Below are positions 3,337 through 9,552 of a DNA stretch of 10,127 bases, one piece after another. Position 1 is the stretch's first letter. Each line of letters opens with the position of its first letter. Origin of the DNA: Bacteroidetes bacterium ADurb.Bin234 (GTDB lineage Bacteria; Bacteroidota; Bacteroidia; Bacteroidales; WCHB1-69). A program made the position numbers and the translations under genes. Under the pieces are notes generated by a model. The model made no database searches. It was not told where the DNA came from and was given only the letters and a program-made list of their open reading frames with translations. The DNA lies in NCBI GenBank assembly GCA_002069895.1, contig MWCE01000044.1, positions 1 to 10,127 on the forward strand. The letters run 5' to 3'.

Positions 3337-4263
3337 ATGAACAAGCATCAATTTTTAGCGACAATTATTTTGTCATTTGCCGTATTATTTACAGCATGTA
3401 AAAAAGAAGGAGTTTATAATCCTAAAGAAAAAATCAGTAAAATCTACAATCAATTTTCCAATGATTCCGTAACAGGAGATATAGGATTGATTGAAAAATG
3501 GACATGGGACGGAAACAAGCTTTCGAGAATTGATTATTTAGATGAAGGATGTTATGAAACATTTGAATATAAAGGGAGTCAAATTATTGGAGTTTCCGGT
3601 AATAACAAGGGAAGTTTCTACTACATTGCTTTCATTTATGGGGATAAATCATTATTACAAAAAATCGATTATTATGTAGGAGGAGAATTAGGAAGCACCG
3701 TTGATATAACCTACAATAATGATAAAATCTCACAAATGAAAATAAAAGTAGGAGAAAACCTATATTATTCATCAAAAAGCATGGATCAAATAAATGGATT
3801 ATCTCATATAATACGTTTTATCGTTTCCGAACAATTAGCCGAAAGGATGCAACAGCAAATTCAAAAAGCCGAATCTTCATATACAATAATTTCATTTGAA
3901 TACGAAGGGAATAATATCAAAACCGAAACATGGACCAATTCCGAAAGTGCCGATTCGAAAACGGTTTATACTTACGTTTACGATACTAAGAAAAATCCTT
4001 TCTATCATGCTTTAAGTTATAATTTCGGTTCGTTTATGTGTTTATCTGAAAACAACATAACAGGTATTACCAAAACCATGATTTATGCAACCATCTCAAA
4101 AATAGAGAAAACGGAATATAATTACACTTACGAAGGAGATTTCCCCTCTCAAAGGGATTATAAACATTTTGTTAAGACTGAAGTATTTAATCCTGAAACA
4201 TCTGAATATGAAACAAAAAATGATTATATTTTCACGGAATCATTACATTACGAATATAAATAG
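3337..4263 (+). CDS. Lipoprotein with degenerate YD/DUF4595-like repeats; function unknown
   Basis: Type II signal peptide MNKHQFLATIILSFAVLFTAC with lipobox LFTAC. The mature 287-aa part is Tyr-rich with repeated Y/W-x-[YW]-[DE]-x-x-[NK] motifs (WTWDGNKLSRIDY, ITYNNDKISQMKI, FEYEGNNIKTETW, YTYVYDTKKNPFY, YTYEGDFPSQRDY), as in YD-repeat/DUF4595 lipoproteins. It has its own promoter-like motif and a downstream terminator. Confidence 0.75.
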   Translation: MNKHQFLATIILSFAVLFTACKKEGVYNPKEKISKIYNQFSNDSVTGDIGLIEKWTWDGNKLSRIDYLDEGCYETFEYKGSQIIGVSGNNKGSFYYIAFIYGDKSLLQKIDYYVGGELGSTVDITYNNDKISQMKIKVGENLYYSSKSMDQINGLSHIIRFIVSEQLAERMQQQIQKAESSYTIISFEYEGNNIKTETWTNSESADSKTVYTYVYDTKKNPFYHALSYNFGSFMCLSENNITGITKTMIYATISKIEKTEYNYTYEGDFPSQRDYKHFVKTEVFNPETSEYETKNDYIFTESLHYEYK

Positions 4264-4325: not shown

Positions 4326-5240
4326 CTATATATCTAATACCATCCCTTCTTCAGCGGCAATGGTATGAGGAAAAATAGCACGGGCTTCGTTAAGCAAAGG
4401 TTCTAATGAAGCGTAGCGGGCAGAATAATGGCCAATGAGTAAACGTTTCACATTTGCCGCTTTAGCAATAGTCGCCGCTTCCGATGCAGTAGCATGGAGT
4501 TTATCGTGTGCAATATTTTTCATATTTTCCATAAAAGTAGCTTCATGATAGAGTAAATCTACATTTTTAATATAAGGAATAACCGATTCGGTATAAACCG
4601 TATCCGAACAATAAGCAAAGCTCTTTGGTTTATAAGTAGAAGGAGATGTAATTTCTTGATTTGATAAACAATTACCATCCTCATCCACAAAATCTTCACC
4701 GGCTTTGATTCTCAGTATCCACTCTACACTCGGATCGTATTTTTCTATGAAGTCTTTATTCAAATTCGGTTTGTGAGGTTTCTCTTTAAATACAAAACCG
4801 GAAGTAGGAATGCTATGGACTAATGGTATGGTTTCGATTGAAATCTCATCGTCATGGTAAATCAAGGAATGTTTATTTGCTTTTATTTTGTGAAAATGTA
4901 AAGGAAAGCTTAGGTGAGTATTTCCGGCTTTCATTTGTATATCGATAATCTTCTTTAAAAGATTAGGACCGTAAATATGAATAGGTTCCGTTCGACCGAA
5001 AAGATGAAGAGACGACAGCAAGCCAATAAGACCGAAATAGTGATCACCATGTAGATGACTAATAAATACCCGACTTATCTTCTGCATACGAATACCATTG
5101 GCTTTCATATGCATTTGAGCCCCTTCGCTACAATCAATCAGAAAGAATTCATTTTCTTTACGTAGGGCAAATGCGCTGGATATACGTTGACCGACCGGCG
5201 TAGCCGAACCGCATCCTAAAACATGTAATTTCAACGACAT
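4326..5240 (-). CDS. rnz: Ribonuclease Z (tRNA 3'-processing endonuclease, metallo-beta-lactamase fold)
   Basis: The 304-aa product begins MSLKLHVLGCGSATPVG and carries the HxHxDH zinc motif (ISHLHGDHYFG). Its length and order of motifs are typical of short-form RNase Z/ElaC. It starts 12 nt downstream of the flotillin stop and is probably co-transcribed. Confidence 0.9.
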   Translation of the reverse strand: MSLKLHVLGCGSATPVGQRISSAFALRKENEFFLIDCSEGAQMHMKANGIRMQKISRVFISHLHGDHYFGLIGLLSSLHLFGRTEPIHIYGPNLLKKIIDIQMKAGNTHLSFPLHFHKIKANKHSLIYHDDEISIETIPLVHSIPTSGFVFKEKPHKPNLNKDFIEKYDPSVEWILRIKAGEDFVDEDGNCLSNQEITSPSTYKPKSFAYCSDTVYTESVIPYIKNVDLLYHEATFMENMKNIAHDKLHATASEAATIAKAANVKRLLIGHYSARYASLEPLLNEARAIFPHTIAAEEGMVLDI

Positions 5241-7379: not shown

Positions 7380-7724
7380 AACAATTTTAAACTATAAATA
7401 ATATTATTTGTTGATAAAATTCATTTTAATATTAAAAGAATAATTCTTTATTAAAATTGAGTATTGATGATTTATAAAAAACATCGATATGGTCTATTAA
7501 AGAATTGTAATAGTTCAAAACATTATAATTGGGTTTCGTTTTTGATTTCCGGTTTTCACAAAAAAGCTTCCAGAATCACACTTTATAAAAAGAGGATTAC
7601 ATATAAAAATCCATTTAATAATCTTATAAAATTTAAAAATTTCATTTCATTTGCTTGATTATATGACATATAAAAAATATTAACGTTTTTTTTTTGTTTT
7701 TTTAGCTATTTATAATAAAAAGTA

Positions 7725-7732
7725 TAATTTTG
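7725..7732 (+). promoter_or_regulatory. Candidate -7 box (taattttg) for the first small Cys lipoprotein gene
   Basis: Matches TAnnTTTG, 48 nt upstream of the ATG at 7780. A T10-G-T7 tract lies over the upstream (-33) region at 7686-7703. Confidence 0.45.
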
Positions 7733-7779: not shown

Positions 7780-7986
7780 ATGAAAAAATTAGTTTTAATT
7801 GTAGCTGCATCATTAGCAGTAGTCAGTTTCAGTGCTTGTAAAAAAACTTGTACTTGTACTCCTTATGCATTAGGCGTTGCCGGAACAGCAGAAGAAGTTG
7901 AATTAACAAAAGACTTCGAAAGTTGCGCAGACATGTCAACTGTTGCAGAAATTGATGGGAAAAAAATCGGTCTTGAATGTAAATAA
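7780..7986 (+). CDS. Small four-cysteine lipoprotein, paralog A; 68-aa precursor with a ~48-aa mature peptide; uncharacterised
   Basis: Signal peptide MKKLVLIVAASLAVVSFSAC with a lipobox, then KKTCTCT...ESCADMS...DGKKIGLECK. The gene has its own TAnnTTTG promoter and a perfect 13-bp-stem terminator immediately downstream. The Cys framework is shared with the downstream paralog. Confidence 0.75.
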   Translation: MKKLVLIVAASLAVVSFSACKKTCTCTPYALGVAGTAEEVELTKDFESCADMSTVAEIDGKKIGLECK

Positions 7987-8007
7987 TTTACATTTAATAA
8001 ACCAGAT

Positions 8008-8047
8008 AAAGCATCATTAGCAAAAACTAATGATGCTTTTTATTTAT
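8008..8047 (+). terminator. Rho-independent terminator of small lipoprotein gene A
   Basis: The sequence aaagcatcattag-caaaaa-ctaatgatgcttt forms a perfect 13-bp stem with a 6-nt loop, followed by ttatttat. It begins 22 nt after the stop codon. Confidence 0.7.
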
Positions 8048-8250
8048 ATAATCTCAATATTATTAATTTTATTTAAACAAGCATTCTTTTCTTTTTTTGT
8101 AAAAACGAATAAAAATCATTCCATTTTTTTTTAATTTTTTTTAAAGTATACGCAAATACTTTTTAATAGAACCTTTTATCAACCTGATTTCTCGAAATAT
8201 ACATTTTATACTTTTTTAACATAAATTTTATTAATTATTAAAAATAAATA

Positions 8251-8258
8251 TATTTTTG
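8251..8258 (+). promoter_or_regulatory. Candidate -7 box (tatttttg) for the second small Cys lipoprotein gene
   Basis: Matches TAnnTTTG, 37 nt upstream of the ATG at 8295. Confidence 0.45.
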
Positions 8259-8294
8259 CATTGTAAATATTTTTTAATTTAATAATAAATAAAG

Positions 8295-8504
8295 ATGAAA
8301 AATTTGTTTTTAATTTGTATTATGGTTGTTGTGGCAATGATTACTTTTAATTCATGCATTAAAACTTGTTCATGTAAAGAAGTTGAAGAAGATGCTGTTA
8401 TTTCTACGAGTGAACAACCTATGGTAAGAGGGATTCAATGTGAAGATTTAAGTTCATATTCAACCAGTACCGATGGTAAGAAAACAGGCACTATTTGCGA
8501 ATAA
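8295..8504 (+). CDS. Small four-cysteine lipoprotein, paralog B; 69-aa precursor; uncharacterised
   Basis: Signal peptide MKNLFLICIMVVVAMITFNSC with a lipobox, then IKTCSC...IQCEDLS...DGKKTGTICE. The framework matches paralog A: C(lipid)-x-K-T-C-[ST]-C-(21-22 aa)-C-[AE]-D-[ML]-S-(~8 aa)-DGKK-x-G-x-x-C-[KE]-stop. It has its own promoter and terminator. Confidence 0.75.
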   Translation: MKNLFLICIMVVVAMITFNSCIKTCSCKEVEEDAVISTSEQPMVRGIQCEDLSSYSTSTDGKKTGTICE

Positions 8505-8527
8505 TTAAATATTCGTAATTACGTTAT

Positions 8528-8562
8528 AAAGTCATTGGAGTTTTTCAATGACTTTATTTTTT
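8528..8562 (+). terminator. Rho-independent terminator of small lipoprotein gene B; it overlaps the first annotated ATG of menA
   Basis: The sequence aaagtcattg-gagttttt-caatgacttt forms a perfect 10-bp stem with an 8-nt loop, followed by atttttt. The ORF-track start at 8548 lies inside the 3' arm of the stem. The next in-frame ATG at 8563 follows the T-tract. Confidence 0.6.
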
Positions 8563-9552
8563 ATGTTAAAAACAATACTATTTTGGTTACACAATGCACG
8601 TCATGTTGCATTACCACAGAGTTTATTGCCCTCTATTATGGCAGTTTGTTTGGCGATGCAAACCGACAGTTTTTCACTTTGGCTTTCCATTGCAGCCATT
8701 GCCGGTATAACAATGGTTCATCTCGGAGCTAATCTAACGGATGATTATTTTGATTATAAAAAAAACAAACAACAAATCGAACAACAAAATCATCCGAGCA
8801 AATCACCCTTACGCAAAGGGAAATGCAATTACTTAATAAATGGAACTGTAACCGAAAAACAATTATTGTCGGTTATTTCATTTTTATTTTTATTAGGATT
8901 TATTTTTGCCGGAATTATTTTTTATTATAGAGGTGCTATCATATTATATTATATTTTGATAACTGGATTTTTAAGCATTACTTACTCTGGCTTTCCTTTG
9001 CGTTTAAGTTATTACGGATTAGGAGAAATCAGCATAGGCATTATATTTGGTCCTTTATTAGTTTCAGGAGTGTTTTATGCTTCTTGTGGTTCTTTTACCT
9101 CTGAAATGTGGACACTTTCATTCATTATAGGAATGTTGGTTTTAAATATATTATATATTCATTCGGTTATGGATTACGAAGCGGATAAAAGTGTGAATAA
9201 GAAAACATTGGCTGTATTAATAAAAAACAAAAACATTATGTTAGCCGTAGCCGCCCTACCTGTCTTCACACCATTTATATTCATTTTAGCAGGGATTTAT
9301 TTACAATATTTGAATTATTACTATTTCGTTTTACTTGCTTTATTGCCATTAGCAATTGTACTATACTATTTATTAATACAATATATCAAGCATCCCGACA
9401 GAATTTACAAACCACATTTTTGGATGGGACCTATGGAACAATGGGATGTCATTACAAAAGCCGGTATAGATCAATTTATGATACGTTGGTTCTTAGCAAG
9501 AAACCTTACTGTTTTCTTTTGTATATTAAGCATCATTGTAAGTTTTTTATAA
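8548..9552 (+). CDS. menA: 1,4-dihydroxy-2-naphthoate polyprenyltransferase (UbiA superfamily, MenA-type)
   Basis: The product is polytopic with two Asp-rich motifs, NLTDDYFDYKKN (NDxxDxxxD-type) and MDYEADKSVNKKTL. Other MenA-like blocks are present: WLHNARHVALPQSLLPSIMAV, PLRKGK...TEKQLL and GLGEISIGIIFGPLLVSG. The biological start may be the in-frame ATG at 8563 (MLKTILFW...), because 8548 is buried in the upstream terminator hairpin. Confidence 0.8.
   Translation: MTLFFMLKTILFWLHNARHVALPQSLLPSIMAVCLAMQTDSFSLWLSIAAIAGITMVHLGANLTDDYFDYKKNKQQIEQQNHPSKSPLRKGKCNYLINGTVTEKQLLSVISFLFLLGFIFAGIIFYYRGAIILYYILITGFLSITYSGFPLRLSYYGLGEISIGIIFGPLLVSGVFYASCGSFTSEMWTLSFIIGMLVLNILYIHSVMDYEADKSVNKKTLAVLIKNKNIMLAVAALPVFTPFIFILAGIYLQYLNYYYFVLLALLPLAIVLYYLLIQYIKHPDRIYKPHFWMGPMEQWDVITKAGIDQFMIRWFLARNLTVFFCILSIIVSFL

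Follow-up and report, generated by a model that had tools for sequence, protein, structure and literature searches.

The window analyzed here, a stretch of 10,127 nucleotides (nt) that comprises positions 1 to 10,127 of contig MWCE01000044.1 of Bacteroidetes bacterium ADurb.Bin234 (assembly GCA_002069895.1), carries on its forward strand two adjacent small genes, which we call gene A (7780..7986) and gene B (8295..8504). Their products, predicted lipoprotein precursors of 68 and 69 amino acids (aa), are by their sequences members of a large, unnamed family in Bacteroidales, in which the only invariant positions are five cysteines. The stretch that encodes the mature protein is exchanged between strains as a unit with sharp boundaries. 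We tentatively propose, at a little less than an even chance for the proposal as a whole, that these are periplasm-facing, membrane-apposed mini-lipoproteins, held by two disulfides made by a MauE-thioredoxin-type enzyme, that serve as binding modules for a strain-variable partner in the cell envelope.

Genes A and B and Their Family

Both genes are ATG-initiated open reading frames (ORFs), present where an initial annotation of this DNA, made from the letters alone, had placed them, and every motif quoted there is correct. The two proteins align over their full length with 31% identity (BLASTP, E = 4e-9), and the genes are paralogs. In A, the predicted signal peptide spans residues 1–19 and the putative lipid-bearing cysteine is Cys20 (codon 7837-7839); in B, the equivalent residue is Cys21 (codon 8355-8357). 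The mature part is 49 aa in both, rather than the approximately 48 aa first reported. It opens with C20-K-K-T-C-T-C (CKKTCTC) in A and C21-I-K-T-C-S-C (CIKTCSC) in B, and continues with a variable segment of 22 residues in A and 21 in B, a mid-cysteine motif (CADMS in A, CEDLS in B), a second variable stretch, which measures 5–6 residues and not the approximately 8 claimed, and a C-terminus placed right before the stop codon (DGKKIGLECK in A, DGKKTGTICE in B). Acidic residues outnumber basic ones in both, 9 to 6 in A and 9 to 5 in B.

As a test for processing by signal peptidase II, we looked for N-terminal basic residues, a hydrophobic core, and the lipobox [LIVMFWSTAG]2-[LIVMFYSTAGCQ]-[AGS]-C. 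Both precursors have these features and are predicted to be cleaved and lipidated. The lipobox of A fits the PROSITE-type rule fully; that of B (F-N-S-C) is also there, as had been claimed, although it fails the strict rule through the Asn at −2 alone, a variant that recurs among several aligned family members. The strict rule holds for 164 of 200 members.

A profile search with seven sequences against 1.84 billion cluster representatives gave 174 proteins at E <= 1e-3, with 21 of them at E <= 1e-10, while word-indexed searches returned close relatives only. Clustered at 50% identity, the family thus comprises at least 174 groups, spread over Bacteroidales. Almost all of the 174 representatives are 64–75 residues long. 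All are named "hypothetical protein" in their sources, which are genomes of Bacteroidales, Prevotella sp., Paludibacteraceae, and unclassified Bacteroidota. The pattern C-x3-C-x-C is found in 203 of the 209 retrieved proteins, and 200 of the 209 have exactly five cysteines counted from that of the lipobox. Among these 200, Lys stands at +3 in 194, and the last cysteine is the penultimate residue in 151, usually followed by K or E. The fourth cysteine is followed by [SA] and then [DE], and a Gly lies three residues ahead of the last cysteine. In alignments of 90 and of 106 members, the sole invariant columns are the five cysteines.

We therefore define the family as proteins of 64–75 aa in which the Cys of the lipobox is followed by Lys at +3 and by further Cys at +5 and +7, with a Cys-[SA]-[DE] 18–25 residues beyond these and a C-terminus of the form Gly-x-x-Cys-[KE]. 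A and B carry every element of this definition and score 83 and 66 bits, respectively, with the family hidden Markov model, whose alignment includes both of them. The framework that they share, kept in relatives and invariant across the 90–106 aligned members, is no coincidence. It also corresponds to no named family, as had been suspected: no Pfam or NCBIfam model matches at its cutoff, and the Pfam scan found no match at threshold for A or B and nothing common across 90 members.

The view that the genes are real, and not ORF noise, is borne out by the invariance of the cysteines and by the coding constraint on B. Since the ratio of nonsynonymous to synonymous substitution rates (dN/dS) is 0.11–0.22 among the B orthologs (P0005-P0007), at dS up to 1.5–2.4, B is a real coding gene. 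The protein of A (P0001) occurs as an identical copy on at least 20 contigs; it is identical to the hypothetical protein GX612_10155 of an uncultured Bacteroidales assembly (GCA_012514455.1), in which B matches GX612_10150.

Some observations bear on the outline of the family. One subfamily has a short C-terminal tail past the last cysteine that ends in -QLF or -KLF (for example, CTPQLF); it comprises P0021, P0042, P0068, P0075, P0103, P0132, P0133, P0154, P0184, and the pair at L035 5001-5453, which adjoins a MauE-thioredoxin gene. A scan of genome contigs with signal-peptide patterns returned unrelated Alistipes lipoproteins and one look-alike from Chitinophagales, and a metagenome scan with the 30-nt signal-peptide DNA returned 3 contigs only. 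The look-alike (L024 4001-4210, from a metagenome-assembled genome) is a small lipoprotein with SCKKTWTCQC followed by two further separate cysteines, with five residues before its CxC. Its cysteine pattern, akin to that of the family though not the same, hints at a wider Bacteroidota superfamily that may extend beyond Bacteroidales.

Promoters, Terminators, and the UbiA Gene

Each gene has its own promoter and terminator signals, in agreement with the initial annotation. A pattern scan places the −7 promoter box of A, TAATTTTG, at 7725..7732 (forward strand), 47 nt before the ATG, and that of B, TATTTTTG, at 8251..8258 (forward strand), 36 nt before the ATG. The box of A is invariant in four lineages, despite a dS of about 2 in the flanking genes. 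Window-wide, the Bacteroidetes −7 motif is not enriched (18 found vs. 16.9 expected); by position, it is, for among the 20 family genes of the fetched loci, 15 are preceded by a box 25–76 nt upstream of the ATG, against an expectation of roughly 0.05–0.08. The family genes that have none include second or third genes of the tight arrays in loci L025 and L035.

Downstream of A, on the same strand, lies an intrinsic terminator (8008..8044) made of a 13-bp stem (hairpin 8008-8039) and a T run, with a folding energy of −16.1 kcal/mol and z = −5.6; its stem is conserved in loci L013 and L007. The terminator of B (8526..8563, forward strand) has a 14-bp stem (hairpin 8526-8557) and a T run, with z = −4.2. 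For neither hairpin did any shuffled sequence fold as well. A search for RNA genes found no Rfam family at the gathering score and no tRNA; weak Rfam matches to Qrr (E = 0.035) and CrcZ (E = 0.041), each overlapping the terminator downstream of a lipoprotein gene, lie far below threshold and were set aside.

The terminator of B abuts the start of the next gene, which encodes a UbiA-superfamily, MenA-like prenyltransferase (8563..9552, forward strand; Pfam UbiA, 101.6 bits). Its longest ORF begins at an ATG at 8548, inside the terminator; relatives start the protein at MLKTILFWL, which in the window corresponds to 8563, directly past the T run. The gene had been called menA. Because every MenA equivalog cutoff is missed (97.1 bits at best, where 264 are required, and 52.6 against 102 for TIGR00751), that identity is unproven, and we assign the gene at the level of the UbiA superfamily only. 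It had also been argued that the terminator speaks against co-transcription. As a strong argument this does not hold: the hairpin ends at 8557, UbiA starts at 8563, and the pattern scan finds no −7 box between B and UbiA. Partial read-through of the terminator would probably account for UbiA expression, and is a likelier arrangement than strict transcriptional isolation. Since there is no −7 box in this interval, transcripts that start at the lipoprotein promoters and read through the terminator probably supply UbiA-DUF454-UvrA. The same layout, a family gene, its terminator, and an immediately following gene, precedes the MauE gene in locus L028.

A Chromosomal Slot with Variable Contents

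The arrangement seen in the window is found on at least 6 contigs from different samples. The order is a divergent operon of NfeD-like, Band-7, and metallo-beta-lactamase genes, then A, B, the UbiA-family gene, DUF454, and UvrA. The slot between the NfeD-like operon and UbiA differs in content among relatives of the clade: it holds A alone in L010-L015, A then B in the window, a B-like gene (B′) then an A-like gene in L007, and a third type, C, then B in L033/L034. UbiA is the conserved downstream neighbor in this clade only. Outside it the flanks are unrelated, and include a peptidyl-prolyl isomerase and an acetyltransferase (L026, L037), an ABC-F gene (L036), and DUF1573 genes (L038).

One complete genome (L025 5677-6460; GCA_942493315.1, OW818690.1) carries three strongly diverged family members in tandem; therefore, the window is not alone in having diverged copies side by side. 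In L033 (5483-6679 and 7774-12080), a DDE transposase stands upstream of the slot in place of the NfeD/Band-7 operon, and UbiA and UvrA are called there as split or shortened genes, which suggests pseudogenes or assembly frameshifts.

Exchange of the Mature Domain as a Module

Two otherwise near-identical loci, L010 and L013, differ in their alleles of A. Their identity over 10 kb is 99–100%, but it drops to 55% in a tract of about 200 nt that also has a 9-nt insertion or deletion (indel). This divergent tract stretches from where the signal peptide ends to the loop of the terminator and covers mature A. The flanking genes have dS values of 0–0.008, and A has a dS of 0.63. The reverse situation is found for B when the window is compared with L033. 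Here, a tract of 165 nt (8373..8537, forward strand), which consists of mature B and the 5′ arm of the terminator, is 100% identical in the two, and the sequences around it, those of the B promoter, the B signal peptide, and UbiA, are 55–70% identical. The breakpoints fall at the conserved motif that codes for CxKTCxC and at the terminator stem. Between the window and L007, with a dS of about 2 in the flanking genes, the promoter, the 5′ untranslated region, and the first 30 nt of A are nearly invariant. Thus, the gene behaves as three modules, namely promoter plus signal peptide, mature domain, and terminator.

An assembly chimera is unlikely, because several independent sequencing runs give each allele again, in unchanged surroundings. 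A diversity-generating retroelement was also considered and rejected, given the 9-nt indel, mismatches at many positions, and no reverse transcriptase called in the loci.

The peptides had been described as fast-evolving. The rates do not support this. For whole genes, dN/dS is 0.04–0.16 in the neighbors and 0.16–0.78 in A; for the mature parts, it is 0.17–0.77 in A and 0.11–0.22 in B, and it is below 1 in all 16 pairwise comparisons, on which ground we reject positive selection. B diverges about as fast as its neighbors: against L007, its dN is 0.26, close to those of UbiA (0.29) and the metallo-beta-lactamase gene (0.27). Because dN/dS is never above 1, the genes have the look of old exchanged alleles rather than of fast-evolving ones; the diversity is that of old paralog and allele lineages moved by recombination.

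Between L010 and L013, further tracts of reduced identity (87–97%) lie at L010 2100-3100 and 8190-9090. Since these tracts separate genomes that are otherwise identical, the population is generally mosaic by recombination. Exchange, then, is not unique to the A and B genes; the depth of the allelic divergence is.

Predicted Fold, Orientation, and the State of the Cysteines

An AlphaFold model of A, computed with the family alignment, has a predicted local distance difference test (pLDDT) above 90 in the mature domain, with strands at residues 23–30 and 38–41, a helix at 49–52, and strands at 56–58 and 61–67. The model of B, with a pLDDT of about 85, has the same strand-strand-helix-strand-strand order. 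The mature domain is thus modeled as a small β-sheet with one short helix. No solved structure resembles the AlphaFold model. In the model, the first strand begins 3–4 residues past the lipid-bearing cysteine, with essentially no tether; for this reason, the domain would lie against the membrane.

The export signal of Bacteroidetes surface lipoproteins, as defined by experiment, is C-X-K-(D/E)2, within +2 to +6, in which the acidic residues are essential (PMC5080379). Neither A (KKTC at +2 to +5) nor B (IKTC) has it, as had been noted; Lys is kept at +3, and +4 and +5 are Thr and Cys. In the family, D/E is missing from +2 to +5 in 166 of the 200 proteins and occurs there in 34. Since A and B are without D/E at these positions, a periplasm-facing location is the better prediction, in line with the initial annotation. 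Directly past the CxC of B, at +8 to +13, there is a K-E-V-E-E-D run (residues 28–33; window 8376-8393) that resembles the atypical export signal KKEVEEE of MucG of C. canimorsus, and the position effects reported in the same study suggest that it would be non-functional as an export signal so far from the lipid-bearing cysteine (PMC5080379).

Association with MauE-Thioredoxin Genes

It had been speculated that the neighboring prenyltransferase links A and B to periplasmic thiol oxidation. Independent support for such a link comes from other lineages, in which family genes adjoin genes for membrane proteins of about 295 aa with a MauE domain. In L028/L029, the gene for a 294-aa protein starts 49 nt after a family gene (MauE gene at L028 6265-7149), and in L035, that for a 295-aa protein lies 10 nt after a tandem family pair (L035 5463-6350). 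The other flanks of L028/L029 and L035 are unrelated, and so are the two lineages. In L025, 2.4 kb separate a MauE-domain gene (L025 2367-3275) from the three-gene array. An invariant CxCFG marks the membrane part of all three MauE proteins; their C-terminal region has an invariant CxxC and, in the L025 protein, a weak likeness to thioredoxin. Their nearest NCBIfam model is BT_3928_fam, far below cutoff. We regard these proteins as candidate dedicated disulfide oxidoreductases of Bacteroidales.

Bacteroides are stated to be without general disulfide-forming machinery, and the bacteroidetocin loci have a thiol oxidoreductase of their own (PMC6671954). We therefore infer that the cysteines of the family are oxidized by a dedicated enzyme of the MauE-thioredoxin kind.

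Comparison with Known Families and Systems

Among named models, the best-scoring and the sole recurrent one from NCBIfam is PG1828_fam_lipo (NF050142), matched by 35 of 90 members at E <= 0.01 (best E 8.7e-7). PG1828 itself is a small, triacylated, TLR2-activating lipoprotein of P. gingivalis (PMC13466725; PMC10126205) and, like A and B, a small lipoprotein of Bacteroidales. Membership in its family was rejected: with a cutoff of 50 bits, A reaches 15.5 and B 19.2, the maximum among 20 further members that were scored is 29.6, and no member exceeds about 30. What matches is for the most part the signal peptide, followed by no more than about 23 residues; the alignments end at model positions 23–44 of 59 and never reach the C-terminal part. 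The comparison was made through the NF050142 model, as no sequence was found in the literature on PG1828 and BF1333. By these scores, the resemblance is one of general type and not of membership. A match of A alone to the DurB-like model for duramycin B-like lantibiotics (PF19398; 15.4 bits, E = 0.024) was likewise rejected, the gathering threshold being 26.6.

Searches of PHROGs and of PDB sequences gave no significant match, and what was found is confined to the signal-peptide region. The top matches are Llp of phage T5 (PDB 8a60_B, E = 0.066) and Cor (PHROG 1119, E = 0.17), which are small lipoproteins of comparable size that face the periplasm, as A and B are predicted to do, in their case at the outer membrane. 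Unlike these phage-encoded proteins, the family is chromosomal. It has no relatives in phage and plasmid collections, and a phage or plasmid origin was rejected on that account. A PADLOC scan of the family proteins gave no matches.

The bacteroidetocins, class IIf toxins of Bacteroidetes, offer a parallel in chemistry, since they are also four-cysteine peptides of 40–50 residues from Bacteroidales. To be active, they need a co-encoded multi-pass membrane protein and a co-encoded thiol oxidoreductase, and disulfide formation is the role that the authors propose for the latter (PMC6671954); this enzyme parallels the MauE-thioredoxin neighbor of the family genes. However, bacteroidetocins are basic and hydrophobic, with a double-glycine leader and export by an ATP-binding cassette (ABC) transporter/peptidase, whereas A and B are acidic and have a lipoprotein signal peptide. 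With this leader, and with no ABC transporter/peptidase gene in the 10–17 kb of context, assignment to the bacteroidetocins or other class II bacteriocins was rejected.

The mau system offers another parallel. MauE and MauD act in disulfide formation of the cysteine-rich small subunit of methylamine dehydrogenase. There, too, a small cysteine-rich periplasmic protein is encoded together with MauE and a thioredoxin-like partner, which in the family loci are fused in one protein. The clients are without homology, and the association with the family holds in some lineages only and is not seen in the window. The literature search found no relevant MauE paper, and a full-text search for SCKKTCTC found nothing.

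Other Genes of the Window

Upstream of A, a 64-aa TTG-initiated ORF (7464-7658) lies in an AT-rich intergenic stretch. A 63-aa product without a Pfam match on record is called at the corresponding spot on some contigs (L002-L004). This ORF is probably spurious. Farther upstream are a 308-aa predicted lipoprotein (3337-4263) with no Pfam match and, adjoining it, a 304-aa protein of the metallo-beta-lactamase fold (4326-5240), whose best precomputed Pfam match is Anti-Pycsar_Apyc1; this protein may be an RNase Z-like housekeeping enzyme.

What Do the Mini-Lipoproteins Do?

The reading that we favor runs as follows. The precursor would be exported by Sec, lipidated, and cleaved at the lipobox cysteine, leaving a 49-residue acidic domain flat on the periplasm-facing leaflet of the membrane. 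This domain would fold as the predicted small β-sheet with its short helix and be locked by the CxC on strand 1, the cysteine at the start of the helix, and the penultimate cysteine, most likely as two disulfides, which a dedicated membrane oxidoreductase of the MauE-thioredoxin type would make. The loops between the cysteines would carry specificity, and the old types (A1, A2, A3, B, and C) would be swapped among strains as a module. The proteins would then act as membrane-apposed binding modules whose envelope partner varies between strains.

Several points weigh against this proposal. It is drawn from sequence and predicted models, and its envelope partner is hypothetical. Secondary structure and pLDDT from AlphaFold would not tell two disulfides from a four-cysteine metal site. 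Of about 7 independent contexts, 2 have an adjoining MauE-thioredoxin gene and 1 has one nearby, and no such gene is found in the 10–17 kb available for the window organism. The dN/dS values below 1 give no direct sign of diversifying selection, and frequent recombination could produce module exchange as a neutral side effect, because other recombination tracts lie in the same 10 kb.

What are the alternatives? The family could bind metal. The four cysteines of the mature domain other than that of the lipobox, reduced in an anoxic periplasm, would coordinate one Zn, Fe, or Cu ion in a Cys4 site, and the protein would serve in metal buffering or delivery or as a metal-stabilized structural module. 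The absolute invariance of these cysteines, the CxC pair included, is consistent with such a site, as is the reported want of general disulfide-forming machinery in Bacteroides (PMC6671954). An anaerobic digester as the source of the DNA, which the database sample names suggest, would fit as well. We consider it an unlikely, though serious, candidate: adjacency to MauE-thioredoxin genes points to thiol redox chemistry, neither conserved His or Asp ligands nor CxxC knuckles occur in the family, and no metal-handling genes lie nearby in the examined loci. Adjacency to a CxCFG membrane protein in two lineages and to a MenA-like prenyltransferase in the lineage of the window, together with the invariant CxC, would fit a redox carrier, in which the CxC is redox-active like the CPC of Mia40. 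Such a carrier, more than a mere client, would shuttle oxidizing equivalents between a MauE-thioredoxin or quinone system and other envelope proteins. A core carrier, however, is expected to be conserved and single-copy, unlike these genes, with their freely diverging loops and a slot that is filled differently among relatives; moreover, the models place the CxC on a β-strand, which we judge an unusual setting for a redox-active pair. We hold this possibility to be improbable.

Another alternative is a conflict module, made of strain-specific protective lipoproteins that would block outer-membrane receptors, for example, or give immunity to toxins acting in the periplasm. The Llp and Cor lipoproteins, of which the former belongs to phage T5, block an outer-membrane receptor from the periplasmic side. 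Balancing selection on such a module would account for both cassette exchange and variable copy number; indeed, mature-domain alleles are replaced and horizontally shared, slot content varies, diverged copies stand in tandem arrays, and the weak matches at the signal-peptide level are to Cor and Llp. But that similarity is not significant, dN/dS is below 1 throughout, the surroundings are those of housekeeping genes with no adjacent toxin, phage, or defense gene in the examined loci, and PADLOC and the phage and plasmid collections give nothing. We think it about as doubtful as the metal site. The role overlaps with that of a binding module. Finally, two adjacent genes for small lipoproteins recall the entericidin A/B toxin/antidote pair, an analogy drawn in the initial annotation. 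The arrangement is all that speaks for it. One gene is dispensable in close relatives, which have a single copy; the order and identity of the copies vary; both proteins share one framework and one predicted fold; and the mature peptides would be acidic globular domains, not short amphipathic helices, and so of another chemistry. There is no sequence match, and the Entericidin model of Pfam finds neither protein even at E <= 10. We accordingly regard a pair of this kind as very improbable.

Returning to the binding-module proposal, it is tempting to carry it further. The proteins could be clients or partners of an unrecognized, quinone-linked MauE-thioredoxin pathway, and their mature domains ancient balanced alleles, traded between co-resident species, that decide a strain-specific interaction at the envelope, be it protection from phages or toxins or recognition. 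In this extended form, we consider the idea speculative and unlikely to hold in full.

Small cysteine-stabilized envelope lipoproteins as such are known. The present family, its predicted fold, its cassette-like exchange, and its occasional MauE-thioredoxin partner are absent from the libraries and literature searched. Most small envelope proteins of Bacteroidales are uncharted, and here is a widespread family without a name, a domain model, or a structural relative. It is a predicted periplasmic family with four cysteines in an order said to have no general enzymes for disulfide formation. Together with the MauE-thioredoxin fusion that adjoins it in some lineages, it offers a concrete candidate enzyme-client pair for how these anaerobes oxidize the cysteines of envelope proteins. 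In addition, strains and species trade the mature half of the gene with sharp boundaries, and such exchange is often seen at recognition or conflict loci. Cassette exchange in these genes could mark a strain-level interaction in digester and gut communities.

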